From: an uncultured Pelagibacteraceae bacterium
Lineage (GTDB): Bacteria; Pseudomonadota; Alphaproteobacteria; Pelagibacterales; AG-422-B15
DNA length: 64,000 nucleotides
Assembly: GCA_902584215.1 (NCBI GenBank)
Contig: CACHYW010000001.1
Location: 26,065-90,064 of the forward strand
Direction of reading: 5' to 3'
Shown here: in pieces, positions 867 through 18,306 of the stretch
How positions within the stretch are numbered: position 1 is the first letter of the stretch
How the letters are laid out: each line of letters starts with the position of its first letter
Notes under the pieces: model-generated
What the model was told of the DNA's origin: nothing
The model's database searches: none
Seen by the model: only the letters and a program-made list of their open reading frames with translations
Program-made: the position numbers and the translations under genes

Positions 867-1961
867 ATGATTGATCAAAACATTAGAGACATTATTAAAA
901 ACCAAGACCCTAATAAAGGAATGGATCAGCTTTTTTTCACCAACAAAGCATTGTTTGATCTAAGTTATGAGGCTGTTTTTAAGAAACAGTGGGTATTTCT
1001 CACTCATCTATCTTATTTTAATGAAAACAATACATTTATTTATCAAATTAACGGTGGGTTTGTTGAAATAAAAAATTCTAAAGATAATAATTTAACTATC
1101 TCATCATCTTTGCCTGATTTCAAATGTCATTTAAAAGTTTATGAAAGCTTAATTTTTGTCAACTTTTCTGAAGTACCATATTCATTTGAAGAATTCATAA
1201 AACCACTAGAACCATATATTAAAATTCATGGCCTTAATGACGGTAAGATCGCATTTCAAAAAGACTTTATATTTAATGCTTCTCATCTTGCAACCATTCA
1301 CAACTTCAAAGAATGCGCGCATTGTTGGGGGGGTGAGTTTACCCATAAAGATTATTTAAGTGTTCATGGGGAGGCGTATTGTAATTCTTATGGAGCTGGG
1401 GTTGGCTCAGGAATTGAATCTCCTGAATTCAATCAACGTATAAAAGATTGGACATTTGAAAGTCAAAATAAAGGTTTGTTTGTTGGCGAGTACAGTGAAG
1501 ATACCAATAAATATTTTAGAATTGCAGAGCGCACTCCTTTACCTGAAGGCATTATGTCTGAGACAATGGATGGTAGCTATTCATGCTCTTCACTGATGGG
1601 GGACTTTAAAACCATAGGACCGGATCATGGTTATACCGCTATTGGTTTTAGCCCATTCAATAGCTTTGTTGCCAATAATGAATTTGTAATTCTTTTTTTA
1701 TTTACTCCTGTTAGTCAAAATAAAACAATCGTTACTCAATATTGGGTTACTCACAAAGATGCTGAAGTTGACATTGATAAAATGATTTTTCTTTGGGACC
1801 AAACATCAACAGAAGATTCCCAATTGTGTGAAATGAATCAAAAGGGTATTGAAAGTCGAGCTTATCAGCCTGGAAAGTATGGCGAACTAGAGACAAGCTT
1901 GGTTCAATATCAAAAGTTCTATCTAAGTCATTTACAAAATCACGTTAATGGACTGACTTAA
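867..1961 (+). CDS. ring-hydroxylating oxygenase alpha-subunit-like protein lacking Rieske cluster ligands
   Basis: 364-aa ORF. The C-terminal half carries an RHO catalytic-domain-style His-rich motif (NFKECAHCWGGEFTHKDYLSVHG). The N-terminal ~110 aa contain a single Cys (FKCH) and no CxH...CxxH pair. The family call is from motif memory only. Confidence 0.55.
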   Translation: MIDQNIRDIIKNQDPNKGMDQLFFTNKALFDLSYEAVFKKQWVFLTHLSYFNENNTFIYQINGGFVEIKNSKDNNLTISSSLPDFKCHLKVYESLIFVNFSEVPYSFEEFIKPLEPYIKIHGLNDGKIAFQKDFIFNASHLATIHNFKECAHCWGGEFTHKDYLSVHGEAYCNSYGAGVGSGIESPEFNQRIKDWTFESQNKGLFVGEYSEDTNKYFRIAERTPLPEGIMSETMDGSYSCSSLMGDFKTIGPDHGYTAIGFSPFNSFVANNEFVILFLFTPVSQNKTIVTQYWVTHKDAEVDIDKMIFLWDQTSTEDSQLCEMNQKGIESRAYQPGKYGELETSLVQYQKFYLSHLQNHVNGLT

Positions 1962-1975
1962 GTCAGGGATATAAA

Positions 1976-3346
1976 ATGGAAGTTGCTACACAAGCTGAAT
2001 TTGACGAAATATTAAGTCAGCACAATAATATTCAATATGTCGATGCAATCTTCACAGATTTATGTGGTTACGTAAGAGGAAAACGTTTTCCAGTCCTTGA
2101 AGCAAATAAAATTTTCTCAGATGGCGTTCTTCTCCCATTCTCCGCATTTTATCTGGATGTTCTAGGAGGAGTAACAAATACCTTGAATCTAGGTTGGACA
2201 GATGGTGATCCTGATGGTGTTCTGGTTCCTGTTAAAGGAAGTATTAAGCCAGTACCGTGGGATGAACGCTTCTTGCAAGTTTTAATCACAATGAGAAAAG
2301 AGCAAGAAAATTGGGGAGTAATAAAAGACCCATCAGAGGTTGACCCAAGAAATATTCTAAAAAAAGTTATGAAGAATTTTAAGAACACTGGATTGAAGCC
2401 AGTGGTTGCTTTTGAATTAGAATTTTATCTTTTAGACAAAAACAGAGATGAGTCTGGAAAACCAATACCTGCTGAAGGTGCTAATAAAACACATGTTTAT
2501 GGTATACCAGACCTTGATCTCTTCGGTAAGTTATTTGATGATATTAACAAGAATTGTGAGATGCAAAATATACCAGCGACTACGGCTTCTAGTGAATTTG
2601 CTGCGGGACAGTATGAAATTAATCTAAAGCACACAGGAGATCTTCTGAAAGCCGCAGATGATGCTGCTTTATTAAGACGAATTATTAAAGAGACAAGTGC
2701 AAGGCACGGCTATGAAGCAACATTTATGGCGAAACCCTTTTTAGATCAAACGGGTAATGGAATGCATCTTCATCTCTCCGTTTATGATGAAAATGAAAAA
2801 AATATTTTTGCTACTCCCAATCGTTACGGAAATAAAAAATTAAAAAGTGCTATAGCTGGTTTTCAATCAATGTTTTATGATAGTTTTCCAATCTTTATTC
2901 CAAATCGAAATGGTTACAGAAGAATAGAAACAAGAAATTTTGTTCCCGTTAATACAAGTTGGTCCTGGAATCGAAGAGACGTTTCATTAAGAATACCAGC
3001 TGGATCAGATGACGCAAAAAGAATTGAGCATCGCGTTGCTTCATCAGACGCCAATCCTTATCTAGTCCTAGCATGCTTATTAGCAGGGTTGCATAATGGT
3101 TTAGCTAATGAATTAACTCCGTCAAACCAAGTTGATTTTGATAATAACGAAGGAGCGGATAAAGAAGCTGATATTGATATGCCAAAAAATATGGACCAAG
3201 CGTTAGCGCGTTTCCAATCTTCCAAACTATTAAAAAAATATCTTGGGAAAGAATATCTTGATCTTTACACTGCTGCAAAACAAGGTGAAATTGATCATGT
3301 CGAGTCAAGTTTTGTTCCTCGAGAGGAATATGATCTCTATCTATAA
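1976..3346 (+). CDS. glutamine synthetase family protein (gamma-glutamyl-amine synthetase-like, PuuA/GmaS type)
   Basis: 456 aa with GS catalytic-domain motifs: FELEFYL, KPFLDQTGNGMHLHLS, NRRDVSLRIPAG...RIEHRVASSDANPYL. Confidence 0.8.
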   Translation: MEVATQAEFDEILSQHNNIQYVDAIFTDLCGYVRGKRFPVLEANKIFSDGVLLPFSAFYLDVLGGVTNTLNLGWTDGDPDGVLVPVKGSIKPVPWDERFLQVLITMRKEQENWGVIKDPSEVDPRNILKKVMKNFKNTGLKPVVAFELEFYLLDKNRDESGKPIPAEGANKTHVYGIPDLDLFGKLFDDINKNCEMQNIPATTASSEFAAGQYEINLKHTGDLLKAADDAALLRRIIKETSARHGYEATFMAKPFLDQTGNGMHLHLSVYDENEKNIFATPNRYGNKKLKSAIAGFQSMFYDSFPIFIPNRNGYRRIETRNFVPVNTSWSWNRRDVSLRIPAGSDDAKRIEHRVASSDANPYLVLACLLAGLHNGLANELTPSNQVDFDNNEGADKEADIDMPKNMDQALARFQSSKLLKKYLGKEYLDLYTAAKQGEIDHVESSFVPREEYDLYL

Positions 3347-5746: not shown

Positions 5747-5805
5747 ATATAAAACGATCTAAGATTGCGATTACAAATATTAAGAATTAGACTAGCATAA
5801 AAATT

Positions 5806-6540
5806 ATGAACGTTTGGAAATATTTACTCGCTGCTTCTCTTGGCAACATGATTGCAGGTCCTCTCGGAGCATTGGCTTTTACAGCTGGTGCATATTTTCT
5901 TGGGAAGAAAAATAACTTTAGAAATCCTGGTGCAAATTTTAATACGCAGCAAGGTGTATATGCTCTCGGCTTAGTTGTATTGTGTGCAAAGTTAGCTAAA
6001 GCAGATGGGAGAGTAACAGATGACGAAATAAGAAAATTTAAAAAGATTTTTAAAATCCCTCAAGAAAACATGAAACAAGTTGGCGCTATCTGGAAGGAAG
6101 CTTCGCAAACAAGTGCCGGATTTGAACCATATGCACAGCAATTAAGGGACACTTTTAGCCGATCACCTCAAATGTTAGAGCAAGTAATCATAGGACTCTT
6201 TGAAATTGGCTATGCCGATCATGATTTATCTAATCCCGAACTAAAATATATAAAAAAAGTAAGTCAAATATTTGGAATTGATCAAGCAACTTTTAACAGA
6301 TTAAGAAATTCAAGACCTGAGTTTGTAAAGGAAGACCCCTACAAAGTATTGGGAGTTAATAAATCACAATCAACATCAGAGATTAAAAAGATCTATCGAA
6401 ACTTGGCTAGAAAAAATCACCCTGATATTGTTAGGGCTAAGGGTATTACTGATAAGAGTTTAATAACTAAAGCTAAAGAAAATTTTCAACGTATTAATGA
6501 TGCTTATGAACAAGTTCTAAAAATAAGAGGTGAAAAATAG
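5806..6540 (+). CDS. djlA: DjlA-like co-chaperone (TerB-like domain plus C-terminal J domain)
   Basis: N-terminal hydrophobic segment, a middle KADGRVTDDEI TerB-like region, and a C-terminal J domain DPYKVLGV...YRNLARKNHPD with the HPD tripeptide. Confidence 0.7.
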   Translation: MNVWKYLLAASLGNMIAGPLGALAFTAGAYFLGKKNNFRNPGANFNTQQGVYALGLVVLCAKLAKADGRVTDDEIRKFKKIFKIPQENMKQVGAIWKEASQTSAGFEPYAQQLRDTFSRSPQMLEQVIIGLFEIGYADHDLSNPELKYIKKVSQIFGIDQATFNRLRNSRPEFVKEDPYKVLGVNKSQSTSEIKKIYRNLARKNHPDIVRAKGITDKSLITKAKENFQRINDAYEQVLKIRGEK

Positions 6541-6944
6541 GCATAATTTAAATTTTTTTATCAGTTTAAATTAAATGACCACGGGATATACTTAGTTATG
6601 GAATTTTTGACATTTATAGCGGTTTGTATCTTAATCTATCTTGTATATTTAATCCGTCAGGATTTTAAGGACCATTCAGTGCGTATTGAAAGCCAAATGC
6701 AGAGAGTTACTGAAGTGGTTATCAAAAGCCAAGACAAAGACGAATAATATTTATTTTTTCTTACCCCAACTATTTCTTTTTCTATTCCTTATCAATGGCG
6801 GATAAGTACCAGTTGATAAGAAGATTCTGATAAATCTCCATTGTAAGAACCATATTTTTTTTAAAACCTGAAACATTTTAGGACTCTTGTTTAAATTAAT
6901 TATTTTAATTCAATATTTTGGCAAATTCATTATAAATAATCCCT

Positions 6945-7550
6945 ATGAACATCGATATTTCATCTTTTAATCAGTGGATAGAGGCTTGGAATCATTTTTA
7001 TGACAAAGAGAAAGAGCTGGTTGACTTGGACCCCAACGCTGCACTGGTGTCATCCGTGAGTAGTGATGGCAAGCCTAATGCTAGAGTTATACTTATTAAA
7101 GATGTCAGCCAAGAAGGTTTCATTTTTTATACGAATTATGAGTCACAAAAGGGAAAAGAACTTTTTCATAATTCAGAGGGACATCTAACATGGTACAGCC
7201 GTGCACAAGGAGCTTCAATTAGAGTTCAAGGAAAAGTCGAAAAAATAAACTCAAGCTTGTCTGATGAGTATTTTTCTTCACGTGATCGTAATGCTCAAAT
7301 ATCAGCAAGCATTTCAAAACAATCTTATGATGTTGATAGTCGTGAAGTATTGGATAAAGAATTTCAAGAGTTTGCAGATGCACATGAAGGAAAAGAAATA
7401 AAAAGACCCGATCACTGGGGAGGAATAATCATTATGCCTTCAAGAGTAGAAGTATGGAAAAGCAGAGATGATTATAAAACTCGACTGCATGATAGGATTG
7501 TTTTCACGCAATCAAATGATGCATGGATAAAGACCAGACTTTACCCATAG
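6945..7550 (+). CDS. pdxH: pyridoxamine 5'-phosphate oxidase
   Basis: 201 aa. PNPOx-type pattern (ARVILIKD..GFIFYTNYESQKG, HWGG, RLHDRIVF, C-terminal RLYP). Confidence 0.9.
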   Translation: MNIDISSFNQWIEAWNHFYDKEKELVDLDPNAALVSSVSSDGKPNARVILIKDVSQEGFIFYTNYESQKGKELFHNSEGHLTWYSRAQGASIRVQGKVEKINSSLSDEYFSSRDRNAQISASISKQSYDVDSREVLDKEFQEFADAHEGKEIKRPDHWGGIIIMPSRVEVWKSRDDYKTRLHDRIVFTQSNDAWIKTRLYP

Positions 7551-7562
7551 AGTTTCTGTGAA

Positions 7563-8069
7563 ATGATAAAAATATTTTTAATACTTTCTCTCTTTATTCT
7601 GTGGCTACCCAATGTATCAGCAAATGATCTGCCAACACCTCGATGGGTAACTTCAAAAAATACAATTAATTGCCGGGCATCTTATATCACAGATGAAGAT
7701 GGAAAAGCTATGGGTTCTATAAAATATCAATATGTAAAAAAATATTTTCCATGGGAAGTCGTTAGGAATATTGATGATCTCTGGGTTCAGGCTAGAGATC
7801 CTCTAACTGATGACTTATGTTTTCTTTTCAGACCAATTCTATCACCTAAGAGAGCAGCAATTACGAAAGAAGCTGTATTGGGTTACAATAATCCAATAGA
7901 AAAGAAGGTCGTGGCTAAAGTTGAAAAAAATGTACATGGCATGATACTCAAAGCTGATTCAGCTTTTATCTTGTTTGAGGTTTATTTAGAGGAAGAGGGT
8001 AAAAAAAGTAAATTCTATATTCCAAAAAATAAAGTTTTTGGCATTTATCCTAATGAAATCATCAATTGA
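7563..8069 (+). CDS. secreted SH3-like (DUF1058-type) protein
   Basis: Signal peptide MIKIFLILSLFILWLPNVSA, then LPTPRWVTSK...W.V....D.W, resembling the alphaproteobacterial DUF1058 SH3-like family. The call is from memory. Confidence 0.5.
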   Translation: MIKIFLILSLFILWLPNVSANDLPTPRWVTSKNTINCRASYITDEDGKAMGSIKYQYVKKYFPWEVVRNIDDLWVQARDPLTDDLCFLFRPILSPKRAAITKEAVLGYNNPIEKKVVAKVEKNVHGMILKADSAFILFEVYLEEEGKKSKFYIPKNKVFGIYPNEIIN

Positions 8070-8074
8070 GTGGT

Positions 8075-8103
8075 TTGAAAAAACGCTTATTTTCTGATAT
8101 AAT
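8075..8103 (+). promoter_or_regulatory. candidate sigma70 promoter of the LLM operon
   Basis: TTGAAA (8075-8080), a 17-nt spacer, then a perfect TATAAT (8098-8103). It starts 6 nt after the upstream stop and lies about 87 nt before the ATG at 8190. Confidence 0.45.
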
Positions 8104-8189
8104 CCTTACCTGAAGCGATACATAACTCACCATTAAAGGAAGCGGGATCGGTCGACTTTTTATTGTTAATTTAATAAAAGGGGAAGCTA

Positions 8190-9365
8190 ATGATTTTTTC
8201 TAAATTCCTAAACGCTACAAACTGGCATAAGCGTCCATATACTGAAATTCTTGATGAAGTCAGGGAGATTACAGATTATTTAGATCAAAATAGTAATTTT
8301 AGACAAGTATGGTTGAGTGAACATCACCTACAAACGACAAACAATTGGACAATGGAGTGCATACCCAATCCAATTTTACTGGGCTCAGATCTTGCAGCCC
8401 GCACAAAAAACATTCGCATCGGACTAGCCGCAGCTATCGCAACCTTTTGGAATCCTCTTAGATTAGCAGAAGATGTTGCGCTTTTAGATAACTTGTCATC
8501 AGGCAGGTTGGATGTTGGTCTCGGTCGAGGTGTATTTGGAAAAGAAGCTATCCACATGAACATTGAGGCCGATTTAAAAGATCAGCCAAAAAACTTTAGA
8601 TTGTTTGTTGAAACGCTAGACATATTAAAGAAGGCTTGGACGCAAGAATACTTTTCACATAAAGGTGAATTCTATGAGTACCCAGCTCCAGAATTTAAAT
8701 ATTCAAATCCACTGTTGAATGAAACATCAGATGTTGTTGATCCAGAAACAAATGTCTTAAAGAAAATTAGTATAGTTCCTAAACCGTTTCAAAAAAATCT
8801 TCCTTTATGGCAAGTAGTTGATAGTCCTAGTTCAATTGAGTTTGCTGCAAAGAATGGTCTTAATTGCTTGATGTGGCTACCAACAATTGCTTCCTTGAAG
8901 TCACGCTTTGAGATTTATGCAAATACTAAATCTGAGGTTGAAAAGAGAGATGTTCCTATGGGCGAGGGAATTGCATTGGTTCGTGATTGCTTTATTGCCG
9001 ATACAATGGAAGAAGCTAAAGAATTAGCGGGTGAGCATTTTTTAAGATATTTAGTATCTGTTTGTGGCGGTGGTAGAGGAGTAGGCATCTTTGCAAACCC
9101 TGGTGAGGAATTACCAAAAACAGATAATCCAATTGATCTTTTAACATACGATTGGATCCATCCGAGAAACCAATTAGTAGGTACAGCTGAATTTGTAATC
9201 GATAAAATTCACGAATTAAAGTCAGAATTAAATCTCCAGCAGTTGGCAATATGGTCAAATCCTCCTGGAATGCCTCACAATGCAGCGATGAAATCATTAA
9301 AATTATTTAATGAAAAAGTGGCTCCTCAATTCAGTGATGATAATTTAATTAAGAAAGTTTCTTAG
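8190..9365 (+). CDS. LLM-class (luciferase-like) flavin-dependent monooxygenase/oxidoreductase
   Basis: 391 aa. Luciferase-like pattern (WLSEHH, RIGLAAAI, LAEDVALLDNLSSGRLDVGLGRG). A purine-rich SD (AAAGGGGA) precedes the ATG. Confidence 0.85.
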   Translation: MIFSKFLNATNWHKRPYTEILDEVREITDYLDQNSNFRQVWLSEHHLQTTNNWTMECIPNPILLGSDLAARTKNIRIGLAAAIATFWNPLRLAEDVALLDNLSSGRLDVGLGRGVFGKEAIHMNIEADLKDQPKNFRLFVETLDILKKAWTQEYFSHKGEFYEYPAPEFKYSNPLLNETSDVVDPETNVLKKISIVPKPFQKNLPLWQVVDSPSSIEFAAKNGLNCLMWLPTIASLKSRFEIYANTKSEVEKRDVPMGEGIALVRDCFIADTMEEAKELAGEHFLRYLVSVCGGGRGVGIFANPGEELPKTDNPIDLLTYDWIHPRNQLVGTAEFVIDKIHELKSELNLQQLAIWSNPPGMPHNAAMKSLKLFNEKVAPQFSDDNLIKKVS

Positions 9366-11062
9366 TGTCTTCAAAAAAAATGATTGGCGGCGAAGCCGTT
9401 GTTGAAACTTTATTGGTAAATGAAGTTGAGGTGGTTACGGGGCTGATTGGCTCATCAACACTTGAGATCTTGGATGGCCTTTACAATAACGCTGAAAAAA
9501 TCAGATATATAGGATGCAGACATGAGAGCAATGGGATGATCATGATGGATGCCTATGCCAGGTATACTGGGAAAAATGGGGTATTTCTGAGTGGCCAAGC
9601 AGGTCCGGGAGTAAGCAACACAGTGACTGCGATGGCTCAGGCAAAGGCTGCTTTTTCGCCAGTTGTTAACCTAGCTGGTGCAATTGCATCAGATCACAAA
9701 GGTAAGGATGCTTTTCAGGAAATAGATCAAGTCAGTTTGATGCAAGCGGTTTCAAAAAAAGTTTTTGAAGTAAAAGAGGTTGAGTCAATACCAGAAGTTT
9801 TAAATGAAGCGATGCAAACAGCACTGACACCACGGTGCGGCCCTGTTCATTTAGATATGCCTAGAGATGTTTTAGGTAAATCAGCTGAATTTAATCAGCC
9901 TACGAAATTTAAATCCATATCAACTTTAGCTGCTGATGAGGAAAATTTAAAAAAAGCTGTAAAGCTTTTAAGTGAAGCACATAAACCTGTAATTCTAGTT
10001 GGGGCAGGAGTTAAGAATTACGGAACAAGTGCAGCAGATAGTGTTTTAAAGTTAGCTGAACTTCTCAATGCCCCATGTACCACTTCTCCAGGACATGGTG
10101 ATGCAATTCCATATAGTCATCCGTTAAATGCGGGATCAGCCGGCCCTCGTGGATCAGGGTTAGGAACAAAACTTTTAAGAGAGGCGGATGTGATTCTAGT
10201 TTTAGGAAGTCGATTAGGTTTTAATACAACGTTCTATTCTTACGAGAACCTAAATGAAAAAGCTTCAATTATACAATGTGAAATAGATCTGAATTCGATA
10301 GGCCGATATTTTCCTGTCGAAGTAGGCATACATGCAGATGCTAAAACTGTAACCGATGAGCTTTGTAAAATGCTTGAAACCCATAAGTCGAAAAAAGAAG
10401 TACAAGATTGGTCAGATCAATTCAAAGACAATAGAAAAAATTATTTTGATAAAAGAGATGCTGACGCTGATACTAAAAGTGTACCAATTTCACCTTCAGG
10501 ATTATTTAAAGAATTAAGGAGAGCCTTGCCGGAGGATTGTGTCGTAACTTTGGATGCGGGCACAATGTGTCTCCAGTTAACTGATGCACTTCAATATCAT
10601 CAACCAAAGAGTTTATTTTCACCACTTGATTTTGGGCTGGTAGGATTCTCTTATCCTGCTGGACTAGGAATAAAACTTGCAGCCCCTGAAAGACCAGTAG
10701 TTTCTTTTCATGGAGATGGTGGCATGTCCATGGTTATCCCAGAGCTTTCAACTGCAATCGAAAATAATATTAATACTGTTGTATGTGTTATGAATAATGG
10801 CACGTGGGGCGCTGAAGCGGCCTACCAAAAAGATTTTTTTGAGGGACGTTTTATTGGTGCTCATATCACAACTCCTGAGTTTGATAAAGTTGCTGAATTG
10901 TATGGATGTAAGGGCATAAAGGTTGAAAAAGCTGGAGAAATTGGAGATGCGATTAAAGCTGGAATTGAGGCTGACTGCCCAACAGTAATCGATGTTCAAT
11001 GTTCCCCTGATGCACTATATTCATTCAGGCAGGACTCATTTAAACATAGAGTAAAACAGTAG
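9365..11062 (+). CDS. thiamine-diphosphate-dependent enzyme (acetolactate synthase large subunit-like)
   Basis: 565 aa. N-terminal Pyr domain, a middle domain, and the C-terminal ThDP motif GDGGMSM...NNGTWG. The GTG start overlaps the upstream stop; ATG 9380 is an alternative start. Confidence 0.85.
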   Translation: MSSKKMIGGEAVVETLLVNEVEVVTGLIGSSTLEILDGLYNNAEKIRYIGCRHESNGMIMMDAYARYTGKNGVFLSGQAGPGVSNTVTAMAQAKAAFSPVVNLAGAIASDHKGKDAFQEIDQVSLMQAVSKKVFEVKEVESIPEVLNEAMQTALTPRCGPVHLDMPRDVLGKSAEFNQPTKFKSISTLAADEENLKKAVKLLSEAHKPVILVGAGVKNYGTSAADSVLKLAELLNAPCTTSPGHGDAIPYSHPLNAGSAGPRGSGLGTKLLREADVILVLGSRLGFNTTFYSYENLNEKASIIQCEIDLNSIGRYFPVEVGIHADAKTVTDELCKMLETHKSKKEVQDWSDQFKDNRKNYFDKRDADADTKSVPISPSGLFKELRRALPEDCVVTLDAGTMCLQLTDALQYHQPKSLFSPLDFGLVGFSYPAGLGIKLAAPERPVVSFHGDGGMSMVIPELSTAIENNINTVVCVMNNGTWGAEAAYQKDFFEGRFIGAHITTPEFDKVAELYGCKGIKVEKAGEIGDAIKAGIEADCPTVIDVQCSPDALYSFRQDSFKHRVKQ

Positions 11063-11071
11063 GATCATATT

Positions 11072-11653
11072 ATGACACTTGAAATCAGGAAGATGTGTAA
11101 GTTTGTTGATACAACCTATGTTGAAGATTTTAAAAAATGTGATGAACCTGTAGTTTTAGTATCTGTCGCAGCAGTAATTACAAACCCATGGGTTGACCAA
11201 GGGTATGTAGAAGACTTAAAGCCTACAATTTTAGAAATAGCCCCAAAGCTTGGTGATTTTTTAGTTGGTGAGCTATTAGATGAAATTGGCTCTCCAGAAA
11301 AAGTCTTAGCCTACGGTAAGGCGAGTATGACCGGGATGCGTGGAAGCATACAACATGCAAGCGCACTGATTCATACGTTACATTTTGGCAATAAATTTCG
11401 TGATGCTGTTGGAGGAACATCCTATCTTTCATTTACCAATGTACGTGGACTTGCAGCTTCAAAAATATCAATTCCTATGATGCACAAAACAGATCCCGGT
11501 TTGAGACAATTTTATTTAACTCATGAGTTTACCATTCATGATGCTCCTGGTCCTGCTGAATTAGTTATAGCAATTGGCGCAAGTACTACTCCTCAAGCTC
11601 ATCATCGTATCGGAAACCGTTATGAAGATGAAAAGGAAATGGGACTGAAATAA
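11072..11653 (+). CDS. amino acid synthesis family protein (AA_synth / DUF1185-like)
   Basis: 193 aa. N-terminal IRK...E...AAVITNPW pattern as remembered for this uncharacterised family. It sits tightly inside the operon. Confidence 0.6.
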   Translation: MTLEIRKMCKFVDTTYVEDFKKCDEPVVLVSVAAVITNPWVDQGYVEDLKPTILEIAPKLGDFLVGELLDEIGSPEKVLAYGKASMTGMRGSIQHASALIHTLHFGNKFRDAVGGTSYLSFTNVRGLAASKISIPMMHKTDPGLRQFYLTHEFTIHDAPGPAELVIAIGASTTPQAHHRIGNRYEDEKEMGLK

Positions 11654-11658
11654 TATTC

Positions 11659-12444
11659 ATGTCTTTTCGCGAAGGACTTGACGATCAAGGTACATATTAT
11701 CAATTTAATGAAGTTGCTGGCACTACTCCCATAGTATTTATTCATGGGGTTGGTTTAAGTTTAGAAATATGGAAACCCCAAAGGGATTTTTTTAAAAATC
11801 ATTCAACAATTGTATACGACTTATATGGTCATGGAAGAACCACGAGTGCTGATGTCATTACCTTCGATAAATTTTCCAATCAAATTGATGGCCTCATGCA
11901 ATACTTAAAATATCCTTCATGCCATTTAATAGGTTTTTCCTTAGGCGGGTTAATCGCTGCTCACTATGCTTCAACGAGATCAAATAAGATCAATAAATTA
12001 ATTTTATTTGGGACCATATATGGTCGAAGTGCCGAACAACAGCAAGAAGCTATCAAAAGGTATGAAAATGTTTCAAAAGAATATTTTGATATTCCTAAAC
12101 AATTGAGCAGATGGTTTAATGAGGATTATCTTAAAAAAAATCCTAATGAGAGCCAATTGGTATCAACAATATTAGAAAACAATGATCATCAAGAGTTCTT
12201 AAAATCATATAAATTATTCTCTCATTTCCAAGACAATATGATTTTGTTTAATCAAATTTCAGCTCCTACATTAATTGTAACTGGAGAGAATGAGGAAGGA
12301 TCTACGCCTGAAATGTCGAAAAAGATTGGGGAAATAGTTAAAGATAGTAAAGTAGACATCATTCCTAATGGAAAACATATGTGTGGCATGGAGTGCGCAG
12401 ACAAGGTTAATCAAGTATTTGGAAAATTTTTAAATGACAACTAA
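11659..12444 (+). CDS. alpha/beta-fold hydrolase
   Basis: 261 aa. HGVG oxyanion region (IVFIHGVGLS), nucleophile elbow GFSLGG, and a C-terminal His (GKHM). Confidence 0.8.
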   Translation: MSFREGLDDQGTYYQFNEVAGTTPIVFIHGVGLSLEIWKPQRDFFKNHSTIVYDLYGHGRTTSADVITFDKFSNQIDGLMQYLKYPSCHLIGFSLGGLIAAHYASTRSNKINKLILFGTIYGRSAEQQQEAIKRYENVSKEYFDIPKQLSRWFNEDYLKKNPNESQLVSTILENNDHQEFLKSYKLFSHFQDNMILFNQISAPTLIVTGENEEGSTPEMSKKIGEIVKDSKVDIIPNGKHMCGMECADKVNQVFGKFLNDN

Positions 12445-13906
12445 TAATATTCAAAATTATCAAATGTTCATAGATGGCCAATGGACTGAAGCAGAAAACA
12501 ATCAAAGATTCGAAAGCACTAATCCCGAGAATAATAAACCTTGGTCTTCATTTCCAGATGCAACAGTCAATGATGTTAATAATGCAGTTGCAGCCGCGAA
12601 AAATGCATTTAAGTCATGGTCAGCAAGCGATGTAAAAATAAGATCTCAATATCTTAGGGCAATAGGGGATCAGCTTAAGAACAACGCTGAGCATATTGGA
12701 AAAATAGAAACTATCGATAGTGGTAAACTCTTGAAAGAAACAAAATTTCAAGCTGAATATATGAAAGATTATTTTTACTATTATGCAGAGCTCGCTGAGA
12801 AAATGGAAAATACAAAAATTATTTCTGACATAGATAAGCCTGATATGGAAGTTATTGAAGTTAGTGAACCAATTGGTGTTATCGCATGTATCATTCCATG
12901 GAATTCACAAATGTTTTTAACAGCGACTAAAGTTGCACCTGCACTGGCTGCAGGGAATACAGTGGTGATAAAATCCTCGGAACTTGCTCCAGCACCGTTA
13001 GCTGAATTTGCAAAATTAACAGAACAAGTAGGATTGCCAAAAGGTGTTATAAATCTAGTGAGCGGAGCAGCAGAAGTTGGGAAAAATTTAACATCCCATA
13101 AAGATATAGGTAAAGTGCTCTTTACTGGTGGAACCGAAACAGGATCTCATGTAATAAGAAATACAGCTGAAAATTTTGCACAGTTAACCCTTGAACTTGG
13201 AGGGAAATCACCAGTTATTGTATTTGCAGACGCTGATGTAGAGAATGCATTAAATAATATTACGACCGCTATCTTTTCTGGAAATGGCTGCAGTTGCATT
13301 GCTGGATCAGTATTGATTCTGCAAGATAAAATTTATGATGAATTTCTTCATCAATTAAAAAATAGAGCTGAGAGTATTAAATTGGGTTCACCGCTTGAGG
13401 CAGAAACTCAAATGGGACCGTTAAATAATCTCAAACAAGTAGAGTTCATCGAAAAAAACATTGAGTTATCTATTAAACAAGGAGCTAAAATATTATGTGG
13501 TGGTAAGCGGCAAAATAATTGTTATTTCCCACCAACAATTATTGAGTGTCCAGACAAATCAATCAATACAGCAAATACAGAACTTTTTGGGCCAGTTCTA
13601 TCTGTGATCAGATTTAGCTCTGAAGAAGAGGCCATAAATTTAGCAAACGACAATCGTTATGGCCTTTCATCAGGCGTATTCAGTGAAAATAAAGAAATAT
13701 GTGAGAGAGTAAGCAAAAAGATTGAAGCTGGTATTTGTTTTACAAATTGTTATAGGTTTATTTCATACGCTGCAAGTTTTGGTGGTAGAAAAAATAGTGG
13801 TTATGGACGAGAGAGCGGAGCTGAAGCAATAAGAGATATGCAATTAAGAAAAACTATCTGGAACTCAACTGCAAGAGTAACAGAAGACCCATTTAAGATC
13901 AGATAA
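12434..13906 (+). CDS. NAD(P)-dependent aldehyde dehydrogenase
   Basis: 490 aa. ALDH motifs PWNSQ, LELGGKSP (catalytic Glu), GNGCSCIAGS (catalytic Cys region), EEFGP-like ELFGPV. It overlaps the upstream gene by 11 nt. Confidence 0.9.
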   Translation: MTTNNIQNYQMFIDGQWTEAENNQRFESTNPENNKPWSSFPDATVNDVNNAVAAAKNAFKSWSASDVKIRSQYLRAIGDQLKNNAEHIGKIETIDSGKLLKETKFQAEYMKDYFYYYAELAEKMENTKIISDIDKPDMEVIEVSEPIGVIACIIPWNSQMFLTATKVAPALAAGNTVVIKSSELAPAPLAEFAKLTEQVGLPKGVINLVSGAAEVGKNLTSHKDIGKVLFTGGTETGSHVIRNTAENFAQLTLELGGKSPVIVFADADVENALNNITTAIFSGNGCSCIAGSVLILQDKIYDEFLHQLKNRAESIKLGSPLEAETQMGPLNNLKQVEFIEKNIELSIKQGAKILCGGKRQNNCYFPPTIIECPDKSINTANTELFGPVLSVIRFSSEEEAINLANDNRYGLSSGVFSENKEICERVSKKIEAGICFTNCYRFISYAASFGGRKNSGYGRESGAEAIRDMQLRKTIWNSTARVTEDPFKIR

Positions 13907-13917
13907 GTACTTTTATT

Positions 13918-14190
13918 ATGTCTAGTAAACTTGAACAAGATATCTCAAAACTTGATTATTTATTCAATCAAATAAAAGAACCAATAGTTTGTGTTAAATG
14001 CTCAGATGAATTAACTCGAGGCCTAACAGATGCAAAATCTATTCAAGATTATTCAAGAATCGATGTAGGTTTTACTGATCGAGGGCTTCAAATTTGGTGT
14101 CAAAGGCATCAATTAAATATTTGTCACATTAACTTTGAAGGAAAAATGCCTGAAGCAGATTTCAGGTGCTTAGAAAAAAAGAATAAATAA
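13918..14190 (+). CDS. hypothetical small Cys/His-rich protein
   Basis: 90 aa. CVKC ... WCQRHQLNICH ... C pattern suggests metal binding. Its stop TAA (14188-14190) is followed immediately by the sbcB ATG (14191). I recognise no family. Confidence 0.45.
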   Translation: MSSKLEQDISKLDYLFNQIKEPIVCVKCSDELTRGLTDAKSIQDYSRIDVGFTDRGLQIWCQRHQLNICHINFEGKMPEADFRCLEKKNK

Positions 14191-15615
14191 ATGAAATATA
14201 TTTTTTGGGATTTAGAGACATCAACATTGAACGCAGCTTATGGATCCATTGTTCAGGCAGCTGCTATATGCACGGATGAAGACTTTAATATTATTGACCA
14301 ATTTGATTTAAGAGGTCGAATGAAGAGGGAATATCCCGTTCCTTCAGCAAAGGCTTTGTTAGTTAACGGTGTTTCCATTGACCAGTTAAAGAATCATGAA
14401 AATTCAAACTTTAGTTTAATTGCTCAAATACAAAGTAAATTATTATCTTGGGGTGAGTGCCTTTTCATAGGATACAATTCAATTTCATTTGATGACATGC
14501 ACCTAAGGCAATCTCTTTACCAATCAGCTCTACCACCTTACATCACAAATACGAATGGCAATAAAAGAGGAGACGCAATGAAACTACTTCATTCTGCAGC
14601 AGCAGTTTATCCAAACGCTTTTGTGAGACCGCTTGATGATAATACTGGTAAAATTACTTTTAGATTAGAAAAGTTTGCTGCAGCTAATGGCATAGAACAT
14701 TCAAAGGCCCATGACGCTCTATCAGATGTTGAAGCAACATTGGGTGTTTGTAAGCTTATAAAAGACCGATGCAACGATGTATGGGAAAGCTCATTAAAAA
14801 CTGCATCAAAAAAAGACCTCTATAAATATGTTGATCAAGAAAAAGTATTTTGTGCGAGTAGGTTCTTTAGAGGAAAAGAATATACGCACGGCCTTGCTTA
14901 CATTACCAAGGACCCTTCATATGAAAATCATGTTTACTGTTTTGATTTGTCAATCGACCCAGATTATGTTTTTGATTTAGATAGGGCAGAGCTTAAGAAA
15001 ATGTTTAAGGGTAAGAATAAGTGTTTTCATATGATCAAAGCAAACGAACAGCCGATTTTATTAGATGAAGATTATCTCTTTAGGTCAGAAGATTATAAAG
15101 ATCTTTCGCCCGAAATCGTAAATGAGCGTATGAAAAAAATAAGAGGTAACAAAAATTTTATAGAAAAATTTACTAACCTTCTTTTAGACAAAGGTGAAGA
15201 TAGAGAACTTACCCAGGACCAAACTGAAAAACCTGTTGAAGAGCAAATTTATAATGGTTTTCCTAGTTCAAAAGACAATTATTTGATGTCTGATTTTCAT
15301 GCCGCTGAGTGGGATAAGAAGTATGAAATTGCCCAAAAAATAACTGACAATCGCTCAAAGGAATTTGCAAAAAGAGTAATTTACAATGAAAAACCTGAGT
15401 TTTTACCAGAACAAGAAGTTAAGAATCGCGATAAAATAATAGCTGAGAAAGTACTCTCAATGGACAAATGTTCATGGAATACAATTCCAGGAGCGATGAG
15501 TGAAATTGATGATCTAAGAGAAAGTGAAGATGAAATTGATATGGATCGTTTGGAAGAAATTGATACGTATATTCAAGAACTGGATACATATCATAGGGAA
15601 AAGTTAGATGGATAA
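14191..15615 (+). CDS. sbcB: exodeoxyribonuclease I
   Basis: 474 aa. DEDDh exonuclease motifs WDLETS, GYNSISFDD, HDALSDVEAT, plus RLE..A.ANGIEHS.AHDA as in E. coli ExoI. Confidence 0.85.
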   Translation: MKYIFWDLETSTLNAAYGSIVQAAAICTDEDFNIIDQFDLRGRMKREYPVPSAKALLVNGVSIDQLKNHENSNFSLIAQIQSKLLSWGECLFIGYNSISFDDMHLRQSLYQSALPPYITNTNGNKRGDAMKLLHSAAAVYPNAFVRPLDDNTGKITFRLEKFAAANGIEHSKAHDALSDVEATLGVCKLIKDRCNDVWESSLKTASKKDLYKYVDQEKVFCASRFFRGKEYTHGLAYITKDPSYENHVYCFDLSIDPDYVFDLDRAELKKMFKGKNKCFHMIKANEQPILLDEDYLFRSEDYKDLSPEIVNERMKKIRGNKNFIEKFTNLLLDKGEDRELTQDQTEKPVEEQIYNGFPSSKDNYLMSDFHAAEWDKKYEIAQKITDNRSKEFAKRVIYNEKPEFLPEQEVKNRDKIIAEKVLSMDKCSWNTIPGAMSEIDDLRESEDEIDMDRLEEIDTYIQELDTYHREKLDG

Positions 15616-16606
15616 TTTAACAGGTCTTGTTCTATTTTGTTTTGGCCTAATCATTGGTGCAGCAATTACTTATTTTTTATTGCAACGGAAAAAATCAGAT
15701 GATGACAATGATAAAAGTCTATCTGATGTAAAAGAAATGGTTAAAGACCTCAGTAATCAAATTTCTCTAAAAGAAGGAAAAGATGAAGAGCGCTATGATT
15801 TAATTAACAAGCTTACAGCAGCATTTACGGGAGGTTCAAAGAAGCAAGGAATTGCAGGAGAGATTTTATTATTGAATATTTTACAGCAGTCAGGTTTTAG
15901 AGAAGGCAAAGATTTTGAAGTACAGAAGAAATACGATGATGAAATTGATGGAGAGTTCAAAAAAAAATATCCAGATATTATTTTACATTTACCTGATGAT
16001 AGAGATTTAGTTATTGACTCAAAAATATCACTGAGTGCATGGCAAGATTATTGTAATGCAGATGATGAAACTACTAAGATTGATGCACACAAAAGACATA
16101 TTCAATCAATACGAACACATATTAAGAAGCTAAGTGAGGCAAATTATCAAAAAATTTATGAGATCAAAACACTTGATGCTGTGGTAATGTTCATGCCTTA
16201 CGAAAGTGCTTTTGACTCAATGTTGGATAAAGTTGAAGAGGTAATTCTTGAAGCTAATAAATTTAAAATTATTTTAGCAAGCCCTTCAACATTGATCTCT
16301 GTACTGAAAATAATTGATAATATGTGGTCGATTAATGAGAGAAACAGAAATGCTGATTCTATTGCAAGCACTGCATTAGAAATTTATGCGCAAGTTGAAA
16401 AAGTTTATTCTGCCTTCGAAAATGCTGGGCATGAACTTAATAAATCTATGGGTTCAATTGAAACAGCCAAATCAAGATTGAGGGATGGAAAAGGGAGCTT
16501 GGTTTTTAGAGTTAAGAAAATGCTCAAATTAGGCGGCTTGAAACCAGACAAGGAAATTCCTGACTTTGAAGAAAATGAAGTTACAAAAATAAAAAAAATT
16601 AAGTAA
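15608..16606 (+). CDS. rmuC: DNA recombination protein RmuC
   Basis: 332 aa. N-terminal TM segment, a coiled-coil, and an RmuC nuclease-like core (PDIILHLPDDRDLVIDSK..., VMFMPYESAF). It overlaps sbcB by 8 nt. Confidence 0.8.
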   Translation: MDNLTGLVLFCFGLIIGAAITYFLLQRKKSDDDNDKSLSDVKEMVKDLSNQISLKEGKDEERYDLINKLTAAFTGGSKKQGIAGEILLLNILQQSGFREGKDFEVQKKYDDEIDGEFKKKYPDIILHLPDDRDLVIDSKISLSAWQDYCNADDETTKIDAHKRHIQSIRTHIKKLSEANYQKIYEIKTLDAVVMFMPYESAFDSMLDKVEEVILEANKFKIILASPSTLISVLKIIDNMWSINERNRNADSIASTALEIYAQVEKVYSAFENAGHELNKSMGSIETAKSRLRDGKGSLVFRVKKMLKLGGLKPDKEIPDFEENEVTKIKKIK

Positions 16607-16644
16607 ATTCAATAGTTTAATAATGTTTTTAGCGGCCTTTAACC

Positions 16645-16673
16645 TTGACTTTAGGCCTCTCCGTACTTACATT
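16645..16673 (+). promoter_or_regulatory. candidate sigma70 promoter for trxA
   Basis: TTGACT (16645-16650), a 17-nt spacer, TACATT (16668-16673), about 27 nt upstream of the trxA ATG. Confidence 0.3.
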
Positions 16674-16699
16674 AAATCCAATTCAAGAAAGGAATCACT

Positions 16700-17023
16700 A
16701 TGGCTACGAAAAACATTACAGACGCAACTTTTGAGGAAGAAGTTTTAAAATCTGATAAACCAGTTGTTCTCGATTTTTGGGCGCCTTGGTGTGGTCCTTG
16801 TAAAATGATTGGTCCATCTTTAGAAGAAATCTCAGATGAAATGGCTGATAAGATTACTGTTGCTAAAGTTAACATTGATGAGAATCCAGAAACGCCAACT
16901 AAATACGGTGTAAGAGGGATCCCAACAATGCTTGTATTTAAAAATGGTGAAGCTGCAGCAACTAAAGTTGGAGCTGTATCAAAGACAGCTATTGTTGAGT
17001 GGATTGAAGACTCAATCGCCTAA
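16700..17023 (+). CDS. trxA: thioredoxin
   Basis: 107 aa with the WCGPC active site and a canonical thioredoxin fold sequence. Confidence 0.95.
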   Translation: MATKNITDATFEEEVLKSDKPVVLDFWAPWCGPCKMIGPSLEEISDEMADKITVAKVNIDENPETPTKYGVRGIPTMLVFKNGEAAATKVGAVSKTAIVEWIEDSIA

Positions 17024-18306
17024 TTAGCTTCTAAAACTTTTCCAGCAAGATATAGAGAGCCGCAAATTAATATGCGCGTATTCTCATTTGCTTCATTAAC
17101 ACTTTTTACTGCTTCAGAAATTGAACTTGAAACTGCAATTTTGGCACATTGATCTTTAAGTTTATTTTTGAGTTCATCTGCTGGGATTGCATTCTCCTCG
17201 CTTGGAATTGTTATTGTTGTAATCGAGAAGAAATTGCTAAATTGTCTGATATAGGCTGCAGGATCTTTTGTATTAATCATTCCAATAATGATGCATAACT
17301 TTTTTTCTGGTAAATTCTTGAGTGTCTTATTCAAATTAAATGCAGCATCAACATTATGTGATCCATCTAAGTAAAGTTCATTTGATGGTTTCATTTTTGA
17401 ACATAACTTACCATCCTCTATTTTTTGCATTCGGCCAGGGAAATAAATTGATTTATGTTTTTGATCTTTTAAGAATTCTCTTACTTCTATGTTTGGTAAT
17501 TGAAATATTGCAGCAATTGCAAGTCCAACATTTTTCTTTTGAAATTCATTTTGATCATCAAAATTAGAAAATTCTATTGTACTCGTATCGTCTTCATAAA
17601 TGAGAGAGTCATTATGTTCCGTTATATTCCAGTGTATTCCATGAACAAAAACAGGAGCCTCATTATGCTCTGCTTGATTTATTAACATTTCTTTTGCTTC
17701 TGGGTAGGGTTGATACCCAATAATTGCTGGAGTCTTAGGTTTAATAATACAAGATTTTTCAAATGCAATTTTCTCAATACTACTCCCCAGAAAATCCTGG
17801 TGATCGTAAGATATTGAGGAAATTATTGAGATTAATGGGTCTATTACGTTACTGCTATCAAGTCTTCCGCCAAGCCCTACCTCTAGCAGAGTATAGTCAG
17901 TATGTGATCTTGATGCAGCTTCAAAAAATGCTCCAGAAGTACTTTCAAAAAATGTTATTTCTGAACCTTCATTTATGTTTTTAATTTTGTTTAAAAGATT
18001 AAATAAGTCATCATTTGTTATTTGTTTATCATTTAATTCAAAACGTTCATTAAATCTGACCAGATGAGGAGATATGTAGGTATTGGTAGACTTATTGTTG
18101 TATCTAAGTATTTCTTGAATAAATCTTAGTGTAGAATATTTCCCATTAGTACCTGCTATATGCAATATATTTTTAATTTTGTTTTGTGGATTTCCTAACT
18201 TATTTAAAAGTATTTTAATTCGATCTAAAGAAAGATCGATTTTCTTAGGGTGTAGTTTTAATAATTCTTCTAAAAGATTATCGATTTGAACGTTAGAGAT
18301 ACTCAA
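17020..18306 (-). CDS. folC: bifunctional folylpolyglutamate synthase / dihydrofolate synthase
   Basis: 428 aa. Mur-ligase P-loop HIAGTNGKYST. It sits downstream of accD, as is common in proteobacteria. Confidence 0.9.
   Translation of the reverse strand: MSISNVQIDNLLEELLKLHPKKIDLSLDRIKILLNKLGNPQNKIKNILHIAGTNGKYSTLRFIQEILRYNNKSTNTYISPHLVRFNERFELNDKQITNDDLFNLLNKIKNINEGSEITFFESTSGAFFEAASRSHTDYTLLEVGLGGRLDSSNVIDPLISIISSISYDHQDFLGSSIEKIAFEKSCIIKPKTPAIIGYQPYPEAKEMLINQAEHNEAPVFVHGIHWNITEHNDSLIYEDDTSTIEFSNFDDQNEFQKKNVGLAIAAIFQLPNIEVREFLKDQKHKSIYFPGRMQKIEDGKLCSKMKPSNELYLDGSHNVDAAFNLNKTLKNLPEKKLCIIIGMINTKDPAAYIRQFSNFFSITTITIPSEENAIPADELKNKLKDQCAKIAVSSSISEAVKSVNEANENTRILICGSLYLAGKVLEAN

Follow-up and report, generated by a model that had tools for sequence, protein, structure and literature searches.

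In the surface ocean, SAR11 bacteria and their relatives are dominant. Trigonelline, homarine and other pyridine betaines are major carbon and nitrogen sources that derive from phytoplankton. The trigonelline cluster tgnABCDEF of Acinetobacter baylyi ADP1 (Perchat et al. 2018, PNAS) reportedly converts trigonelline to succinate, methylamine, formate and CO2. The TgnB protein appears as a luciferase-like monooxygenase for trigonelline in PMC11354265, and a study of coumarin degradation reports that proteins of the DUF1185 family are homologous to TgnF, which stimulates TgnE-dependent succinate-semialdehyde oxidation in A. baylyi (PMC7913881). The present analysis concerns a five-gene operon within a 64,000-nt stretch of DNA (the window; G+C content approximately 35%) of an uncultured Pelagibacteraceae bacterium (assembly GCA_902584215.1, contig CACHYW010000001.1, positions 26,065 to 90,064 of the forward strand). 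The operon encodes (i) a luciferase-like flavin monooxygenase (LLM), (ii) a thiamine diphosphate (ThDP)-dependent enzyme, (iii) a protein of the AA_synth/DUF1185 family, (iv) an alpha/beta hydrolase and (v) an aldehyde dehydrogenase (ALDH), and it is a conserved catabolic operon of marine bacteria, namely SAR11 and relatives. What is new relative to tgn is an uncharacterised clade of ThDP enzymes and a candidate cis-regulatory RNA.

Two other systems were considered for comparison. The Rut pathway comprises the LLM RutA, which directly opens an N-heterocycle, the alpha/beta hydrolase RutD, the RidA-like protein RutC and the reductase RutF; as in the operon studied here, a hydrolase is combined with a small protein of chorismate-mutase/YjgF-like fold, and the two handle enamine-type products. 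The Rut pathway is not known to contain a ThDP enzyme. The window hydrolase scores 53 bits with the RutD model (cut-off 238) and no equivalents of RutB or RutE are present, so that the resemblance to Rut is one of analogy only. The second system is homABCDER, a catabolic operon for homarine, an abundant marine pyridine betaine, which occurs in SAR11 and includes an ALDH-like enzyme (PMC13236597). It was rejected as a match, being composed of an FAD-binding HomA, HomB and the peptidase HomC, with no LLM, ThDP enzyme or DUF1185 protein (PMC13236597).

Gene set, conservation and homology to tgn

The organization of the operon is summarized in Table 1. The five co-directional open reading frames (ORFs) are separated, in order, by -1, +9, +5 and -11 nt. 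Their coordinates agree with the spacings given in the first-pass annotation of this DNA, and Pfam supports all five of its domain calls with strong scores. The start of the ThDP gene is ambiguous, with other gene callers taking the downstream ATG (giving a protein of 560 aa). The GTG start, together with the TAGTG stop/start overlap, is favoured, since the Lys-Lys pair just upstream of the ATG is conserved among homologues.

Table 1. Features of the operon and of the region preceding it (positions in the window).
Feature	Position	Strand	Description
Sigma-70-type promoter	8075-8103	+	TTGAAA 8075-8080, 17-nt spacer, TATAAT 8098-8103; TG 8095-8096 (extended -10)
Leader RNA, aptamer-like	8110-8165	+	P1 8115-8119/8151-8155; P2 8130-8131/8138-8139
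Predicted hairpin masking the Shine-Dalgarno (SD) sequence (putative expression platform)	8156-8181	+	From single-sequence folds; U-rich tract pairs with the start of the SD
LLM gene	8190-9365	+	391 aa; "type B" luciferase-like flavin monooxygenase
ThDP enzyme gene	9365-11062	+	GTG start; alternative ATG at 9380
AA_synth/DUF1185 gene	11072-11653	+	TgnF-like helper
Alpha/beta hydrolase gene	11659-12444	+	TgnD-like; GFSLGG nucleophile motif
ALDH gene	12434-13906	+	NAD(P)-dependent; TgnC-like

The search for relatives of the ThDP enzyme used a ThDP alignment and a single genome from each species; more than 572 places were found, of which the best 80 were used. The relatives kept are 52-98% identical to the window protein. 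They include those of the Pelagibacter isolates HIMB1746, HIMB1748, HIMB1495 and nBUS_49, of SAR116, many Roseobacters, Rhizobiaceae, Arenicellales, Granulosicoccaceae and Leucothrix, as well as of Acidimicrobiales and a Chloroflexi metagenome-assembled genome (MAG), the nearest (96-98% identity) being found in single-cell genomes labelled Pelagibacteraceae.

Neighbours were counted at the 53 loci with enough flanking sequence, on the same strand and at most 7 kb from the ThDP gene. A hydrolase gene was present at 47 of these, an LLM gene at 45, an ALDH gene at 39 and an AA_synth gene at 32, with a CMD protein gene (14 loci) and a flavin reductase gene (11 loci) as less frequent companions; hydrolase, LLM and ALDH genes occurred jointly at 38 loci. 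In SAR11, SAR116, Roseobacter, Arenicellales, Rhizobiaceae and further groups, ThDP homologues of 52-64% identity are accompanied by an LLM, a hydrolase and an ALDH, in varying order. On three unrelated contigs carrying ThDP homologues (55-64% identity) the order of these genes is shuffled, and LLM homologues approximately 60% identical to that of the window are likewise clustered in a SAR11 single-cell genome and a MAG. The earlier proposal that the genes constitute a self-contained catabolic unit is thus borne out by their co-occurrence, conserved in many genomes although in shuffled order. Carried by cultured Pelagibacter strains and by SAR116, Roseobacter and Arenicellales genomes, the conserved operon points to a substantial route of dissolved organic nitrogen turnover.

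Two main architectures were distinguished. Type A clusters have the order (reductase)-ALDH-LLM of 345 aa-(AA_synth)-hydrolase-ThDP-(CMD) and are often accompanied by a divergent LysR or GntR regulator gene and an OpuAC/ProW-type ABC transporter; Rieske GbcA-like oxygenases and MttB-like methyltransferases are further neighbours (these families were judged by eye, on representative sequences). Type B clusters, found in the window lineage and Pelagibacter, have the order LLM of approximately 390 aa-ThDP-AA_synth-hydrolase-ALDH and contain neither a regulator nor a reductase gene. Between the two types, the LLM and hydrolase are 26-28% identical, compared to approximately 46-55% for the ThDP, ALDH and AA_synth proteins. 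On a contig of Arenicella sp. (locus L057, 389-12062), genes for AA_synth, hydrolase, TgnA-like reductase and ALDH form a canonical-like tgn set, whose LLM gene is not within the stretch examined; a ThDP-type set adjoins it, with a LysR gene in between.

The correspondence to tgn emerged from a tblastn comparison of the window AA_synth protein with plasmids, which gave 387 records, the best with 52-55% identity. Plasmid NZ_CP094644 of Acinetobacter sp. PK01, on which PGAP names tgnA, tgnB and tgnC, carries genes for GntR, AA_synth, hydrolase, tgnA, tgnB, tgnC, permease, hypothetical protein, succinate-semialdehyde dehydrogenase (SSADH) and CMD protein, in this order. A second match is a cluster of Sinorhizobium meliloti pSymA beside nod genes, which we take to be the classical trigonelline-catabolism region. 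The AA_synth protein (PF06684, 184 bits) shares 54.5% identity with the protein that stands in the TgnF place of an annotated tgn cluster and is therefore of the TgnF type; its solved relatives are 2QTP and 3BYQ. The first-pass annotation had described the family as having no established function; one reported member, TgnF, is said to stimulate the oxidation of a semialdehyde (PMC7913881, citing Perchat 2018). The ALDH (Pfam, 507 bits) is 45% identical to TgnC over its full length, compared to 31% for the SSADH of the same tgn cluster (BLASTP), which places it in the TgnC type; HpaE and BADH, its best NCBIfam models, are both among the three best of the genuine TgnC. Between the hydrolase and TgnD, identity is 31% (E 6e-41). 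PcaD, the NCBIfam model with which the hydrolase scores best, is also among the three best of the genuine TgnD, together with two bifunctional PcaD/PcaC models; identification as PcaD itself was rejected, since the score lies under the curated cut-off.

The most divergent of these proteins is the LLM (Pfam Bac_luciferase, 140 bits), which is 25% identical to TgnB (E 2e-31, BLASTP) and 46 residues longer. NCBIfam has no hidden Markov model for TgnB, and the LLM remains under every NCBIfam cut-off. A desulfonating LLM of the SsuD/SfnG/DmoA type was tried and rejected (46 bits with SfnG, cut-off 383; 25 bits with NtaA/DmoA, cut-off 280), and no SsuD model is among the 20 NCBIfam matches listed. 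The LLMs of SAR11 and of the syntenic locus L004 are 56-71% identical to that of the window. None of the five proteins reaches a curated NCBIfam cut-off, those of named biosynthetic families included, which is in favour of the first-pass annotation; the solved structures include only generic relatives of the operon proteins.

By sequence comparison, then, four of the five operon proteins are homologous to TgnB, TgnC, TgnD and TgnF. In the window as in tgn, a single operon combines the genes for an LLM oxygenase, an ALDH, a DUF1185 protein and an alpha/beta hydrolase, with a CMD protein as an occasional companion. The two differ in that the window operon has an extra ThDP enzyme, no TgnA flavin reductase and no ALDH-type SSADH, and in that a structured leader RNA takes the place of a GntR or LysR regulator.

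A conserved leader RNA between promoter and LLM gene

The TTGAAA-17-TATAAT promoter previously proposed ahead of the operon is present and, in addition, carries a TG extension. It is the sole 11/12 match within positions 6500-17200; over the whole 64 kb, 3 sites with at least 11/12 matches were observed compared to 3.9 expected, so the motif score alone is not above chance. The promoter is nevertheless credible, because a conserved leader RNA follows it at a distance of approximately 7 nt and because the promoter is itself conserved in locus L012. The predicted transcription start is located approximately 7 nt past the -10 hexamer and approximately 5 nt ahead of stem P1 of this RNA.

The first-pass annotation had described a leader of approximately 80 nt with two GAAGCG repeats. 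Both repeats are real, that at 8112 belonging to the 5' strand of P1 and that at 8139 forming part of the 3' internal loop, but the conserved structured RNA that contains them had escaped notice. Alignment of the upstream regions revealed two invariant blocks, CATAACTC and AAG(C/U)GGGAUC, which persist where the proteins are only 56-71% identical. These blocks flank a P2 hairpin of variable length and sequence (short in the window lineage) and are enclosed by P1 (GCGAU with GUCGU); the invariant internal loops are ACAUAACUC and AAGCGGGAUC.

A covariance model of the element (R1) matches the window leader at 64 bits (E 9e-12). Each of the 17 type B loci that were searched gave exactly one match, immediately ahead of the LLM gene in every case; type A and canonical loci gave none, nor did the rest of the window. 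When metagenomes were scanned with a pattern, 120 contigs were obtained, approximately 78 of them with the full element, and in nearly all contigs long enough an LLM gene lies 57-90 nt downstream of the leader. Every operon of this type is thus preceded by the leader, at 17 genome loci and on approximately 75 metagenome contigs. In a hand-made alignment of 14 sequences, 92.7% of cells are paired, with compensatory changes in 5 of the 9 pairs. With 92 sequences, in an alignment that was fitted to the model and thus favours the structure, 94.1% of cells are paired and 7 of the 9 pairs show compensatory changes (18 cells); none of 500 shuffles reached the observed values, and slid controls were 20-60% paired. 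A variable loop and compensatory changes within a hairpin speak for an element that acts as RNA and not for an operator in the DNA. The leader has no match in Rfam 15 (4227 families), and no description of either the leader RNA or the five-gene cluster was found in the literature.

This conserved, structured 5' untranslated element with covariation, a feature of riboswitches, probably exerts riboswitch-like control of the operon. Like small translational riboswitches, it is placed between promoter and SD, comprises two stems in which compensatory changes occur, has internal loops with invariant nucleotides and a P2 terminal loop of variable length, is followed by a predicted SD-masking hairpin and precedes an operon without a regulator gene. 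It differs from them in lying outside the Rfam families and in that the sensing of a ligand is a proposal. Pairing of at least three of the four SD nucleotides is predicted for 82% of 55 distinct leaders, compared to 2.1 of 4 paired in the shuffled control. An extension of P1 into the U-rich tract, which would compete with the SD-masking hairpin, is only weakly indicated, its pairs forming in 88%, 66% and 40% of sequences, with two-sided changes only in the outermost one. The ligand of the leader, once identified, would name the substrate of the operon, and the leader itself would be a further class of riboswitch in a lineage known to depend on regulatory RNAs.

Counting of the operon forms behind the shared leader gave 21 with the window order LLM-ThDP-AA_synth-hydrolase-ALDH, 10 (and 5 partial) with LLM-AA_synth-hydrolase-ALDH, 3 with LLM-ThDP-hydrolase (complete in L166), and one each with LLM-ThDP-CMD-hydrolase-ALDH and LLM-AA_synth-ThDP-hydrolase.

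Some leader copies have other genes downstream. In one metagenome contig (L134, leader at approximately 1683-1738 on the minus strand; see also L131) the leader precedes a gene for a 2-oxoglutarate-Fe(II) oxygenase, followed by the LLM gene; that same oxygenase sits just upstream of the operon in SAR11 genomes. Copies without an LLM operon were found in L096, L120, L167 (a second copy), L186 and L196, with unrelated or opposite-strand genes downstream, and may have persisted where the operon itself was lost.

The ThDP enzyme, the proposed pathway and its alternatives

The ThDP enzyme contains the three TPP domains recognized by Pfam, a GDGG...NN cofactor motif and a catalytic Glu. Its top NCBIfam models are both Xsc models, NF005713 (424.3 bits, cut-off 620) and TIGR03457 (403.6 bits, cut-off 676.4). 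Identity with Xsc was rejected, since both scores lie below the cut-off and the protein is 30-32% identical to plasmid genes annotated xsc. The biosynthetic acetolactate synthase IlvB was rejected as well (TIGR00118, 365.7 bits, cut-off 538; 29.7% identity to an ilvB), the neighbours being LLM and AA_synth genes and not ilvN. The profile placement that had been recommended for this enzyme therefore assigns it to a distinct clade, under the Xsc and acetolactate synthase cut-offs. With Xsc it has in common the three-domain ThDP fold, the GDGG...NN motif, the catalytic Glu and the best model scores, but unlike xsc the window gene has no adjacent taurine, isethionate or pta genes. The clade is easily mislabelled as acetolactate synthase or Xsc, as is the case for one JGI name, and its definition would put right annotations from which sulfonate cycling in marine metagenomes is deduced.

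Three genomic contexts bear on the reaction of this enzyme. In type A clusters the ThDP gene is followed by a CMD gene, as the SSADH gene is in the Acinetobacter cluster. In Xanthobacter tagetidis (L059, 9995-17339) and Hwanghaeella (L046) a ThDP-CMD pair, 74% and 73% identical to the type A proteins, occurs with a GMC oxidoreductase and without LLM or hydrolase; the X. tagetidis locus additionally encodes a metallo-beta-lactamase-fold protein and a TRAP transporter. No ThDP-type cluster was found among plasmids, only canonical tgn clusters and, in Ruegeria, a ThDP paralogue of 41-44% identity. The latter ends a cluster on the R. pomeroyi DSS-3 megaplasmid (NC_006569, 339974-349294; L091) together with genes for LysR, an MttB-like methyltransferase, a class-III aminotransferase and two FAD-dependent oxidoreductases of approximately 800 aa, which may represent a methylated-amine pathway yielding an aldehyde. 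Since the upstream enzymes are plausibly aldehyde-forming in all three contexts, we infer that the ThDP enzyme and its CMD or DUF1185 partner process an aldehyde. In an LLM tree, ThDP-less operons nest among ThDP-containing ones; the ThDP gene was therefore gained or lost repeatedly, and the constant core consists of the LLM and hydrolase genes; a terminal and replaceable ThDP step fits better than an obligatory one.

A replacement was also seen in the partner gene. In L004, a syntenic relative with 64-71% protein identity and the same pdxH and sbcB flanks, a CMD-family protein (5754-6125) occupies the exact AA_synth slot as a non-homologous substitute.

On balance, and with moderate confidence, we regard the locus, by analogy with tgn, as a catabolic operon for the opening of a small N-heterocyclic, probably N-methylated zwitterion (a pyridine betaine or trigonelline). 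The homology of four proteins to Tgn enzymes points to N-heterocyclic betaine catabolism rather than to alicyclic ketones or SsuD-type desulfonation, and the exchange of LLM and hydrolase between types A and B, as well as the two gene sets of the Arenicella contig, indicates a substrate related, but not necessarily identical, to trigonelline.

By analogy with tgn, the pathway might proceed as follows. The FMNH2-dependent LLM, the presumed ring-opening oxygenase, would open the ring oxidatively to an N-formyl enamide aldehyde or lactol, using reduced flavin from a flavin reductase encoded elsewhere. The TgnC-like ALDH would oxidise the aldehyde product of the LLM, and the TgnD-like hydrolase would yield formate, an amine and a C4 aldehyde. 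The ThDP enzyme, which appears to hold the place of the SSADH TgnE of the Acinetobacter cluster, would then turn the aldehyde intermediate into a central metabolite together with the TgnF-like protein (in a relative, the CMD protein). The ThDP reaction itself may be oxidative, an Xsc-like alpha-elimination or a decarboxylation. Expression would be driven by the strong sigma-70 promoter, with the leader RNA gating translation initiation: its ligand-binding fold would free an SD otherwise kept in a hairpin.

Several observations weigh against this interpretation. Since identity is as low as 25% between the LLM and TgnB and 31% between the hydrolase and TgnD, the compound whose ring is opened may be very unlike trigonelline, and at such a distance the LLM might even perform a different kind of oxygenation. 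The window cluster contains no flavin reductase, transporter or regulator gene; a tblastn search found no TgnA or Flavin_Reduct homologue in the 64-kb window, although such homologues occur in some type A relatives. Canonical tgn clusters, for their part, have no ThDP enzyme. Finally, the same leader and related LLMs also occur in operons that lack the ThDP gene, or the ALDH and AA_synth genes, and the roles of these variable genes are therefore not fixed by context.

A more far-reaching version of the betaine pathway seems to us possible but rather doubtful: that the leader represents a new riboswitch class for a pyridinium-type betaine or an intermediate and controls an uncharacterised ring-cleavage pathway with a wide distribution in SAR11, and that the new ThDP clade performs chemistry undescribed for its family. 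The enzyme would in that case make an acyl phosphate or acid from the aldehyde, possibly with alpha-elimination of sulfite or another group, and would constitute a portable "aldehyde-processing module" with a CMD or DUF1185 partner.

The strongest of the rival explanations, although unlikely in our view, is plain trigonelline catabolism, in which, despite its divergence, the LLM of a SAR11-type tgn operon would act on trigonelline and SSADH would have given way to the ThDP enzyme. The correspondence of the gene set to TgnB, TgnC, TgnD and TgnF agrees with it, as do the abundance of trigonelline as a marine metabolite (PMC8269262), the placement of the ThDP gene next to a CMD gene where SSADH stands in Acinetobacter, and the dispensability of the ThDP gene in many operons, which is shared by TgnE in the S. 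meliloti cluster. However, the TgnB orthologues of Acinetobacter and Sinorhizobium are 72% identical, compared to 40-42% for type A LLMs and TgnB and the still lower value for the window LLM. The Arenicella contig, where a canonical-like tgn set stands beside a ThDP-type set, suggests different substrates, and the LLM and hydrolase are precisely the proteins that were swapped between types A and B while the other three were kept.

Organosulfonate processing by SsuD-like and Xsc-like enzymes, put forward in the first-pass annotation, is not supported by the LLM and ThDP scores given above, which lie far under the SfnG, NtaA/DmoA and Xsc cut-offs. In a narrower and quite improbable form, the pathway aldehyde would carry an alpha-sulfonate (or other leaving group), and the ThDP enzyme would act as Xsc does, with addition of ThDP to the aldehyde, elimination of sulfite and formation of an acyl phosphate. 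A possible substrate is a sulfonated trigonelline analogue; there, the group that departs spontaneously from trigonelline as CO2 could leave only with help. The ThDP enzyme may conceivably catalyse a sulfonate-type alpha-elimination, and the two Xsc models stand at the top of its matches (424 and 404 bits, compared to 366 for acetolactate synthase), but the scores fall far short of the cut-offs and the identity to annotated Xsc is about the same as that to ilvB. Genes of TauE/SafE-type sulfite exporters are found near the cluster in SAR11 loci and an Arenicellales locus; the SAR11 copies, however, are syntenic and hence not independent observations. A TauD-like dioxygenase gene (judged by eye) lies between the ThDP and CMD genes in Roseovarius and Nioella, the context of the R. 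pomeroyi paralogue would fit conversion of methylated taurine to sulfoacetaldehyde, and the ThDP-GMC-TRAP arrangement of Xanthobacter resembles that of isethionate clusters. Against these, ThDP-less operons share the leader and the LLM clade, which makes an obligatory C-S cleavage hard to envisage unless a ThDP enzyme is encoded elsewhere, and the window contains no pta or sulfite dehydrogenase gene. We also know of no abundant marine sulfonated pyridinium compound. Taken together, the hints at sulfonate chemistry (TauE neighbours, the TauD-like gene in some operons and Xsc as the best model) are weak.

The other route suggested earlier, degradation of alicyclic ketones by a type II Baeyer-Villiger LLM, a lactonase and a ThDP diketone hydrolase akin to cyclohexane-1,2-dione hydrolase, is highly improbable: 3,6-diketocamphane monooxygenase (E 1e-11) and cyclohexane-1,2-dione hydrolase (E 4e-42) are among the solved relatives of the LLM and ThDP enzyme and the top models of the hydrolase are enol-lactonases (PcaD), but approximately 35 other solved ThDP proteins outscore cyclohexane-1,2-dione hydrolase, the genuine TgnD has the same PcaD preference, the AA_synth and ALDH proteins are specifically TgnF-like and TgnC-like, and the genome contexts are those of betaine and amine catabolism, not of terpenes or alicyclic compounds.

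Operon boundaries and neighbouring genes

The operon is flanked by pdxH and a 168-aa ORF on one side and by sbcB-rmuC-trxA on the other. No terminator was predicted after position 13906, and the close packing runs on into a 90-aa ORF, sbcB and rmuC. Spacing therefore leaves the 3' end of the operon unset, and its boundary is given by conservation across genomes. The 90-aa Cys-rich ORF (13918-14190), wedged between the ALDH gene and sbcB, has no Pfam or NCBIfam match; it is present only in the two closest relatives (L011 and L013) and absent from L004. A terminator-like hairpin with a T-run (9384-9405) lies just within the 5' end of the ThDP gene and is probably due to chance, since such sites are rarer than expected (4 compared to 6.3).

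Several genes recur near the operon in other genomes. In some Pelagibacter operons (L069, 11687-12316; also L060, L067 and L090) a gene for a 209-aa S-adenosylmethionine-dependent methyltransferase is inserted between the ThDP and AA_synth genes, and its product might methylate a precursor to give the ring substrate. Upstream of the operon, L069 (2589-3964) and syntenic SAR11 loci encode a TauD-like dioxygenase followed by a small HD-domain-like protein (the latter judged by eye), a pair that recalls the phosphonate oxygenases TmpA/TmpB or PhnY*/PhnZ; genes for a GMC oxidoreductase and an EamA transporter follow, still upstream of the operon. Arginase, creatinase and DDAH genes were seen near approximately 10 loci, at variable distance and in variable orientation, and were not used as support.

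In the window itself, a GbcA-like ORF (a Rieske-type betaine oxygenase), whose match to the model is confined to the C-terminal two thirds of the latter, is followed by a gene for a glutamine-synthetase-like protein scoring under the GlnA, GS-III and gamma-glutamylputrescine synthetase cut-offs. These genes (867-3346), located 5-7 kb upstream of the operon, could be involved in the handling of quaternary amines or methylamine.

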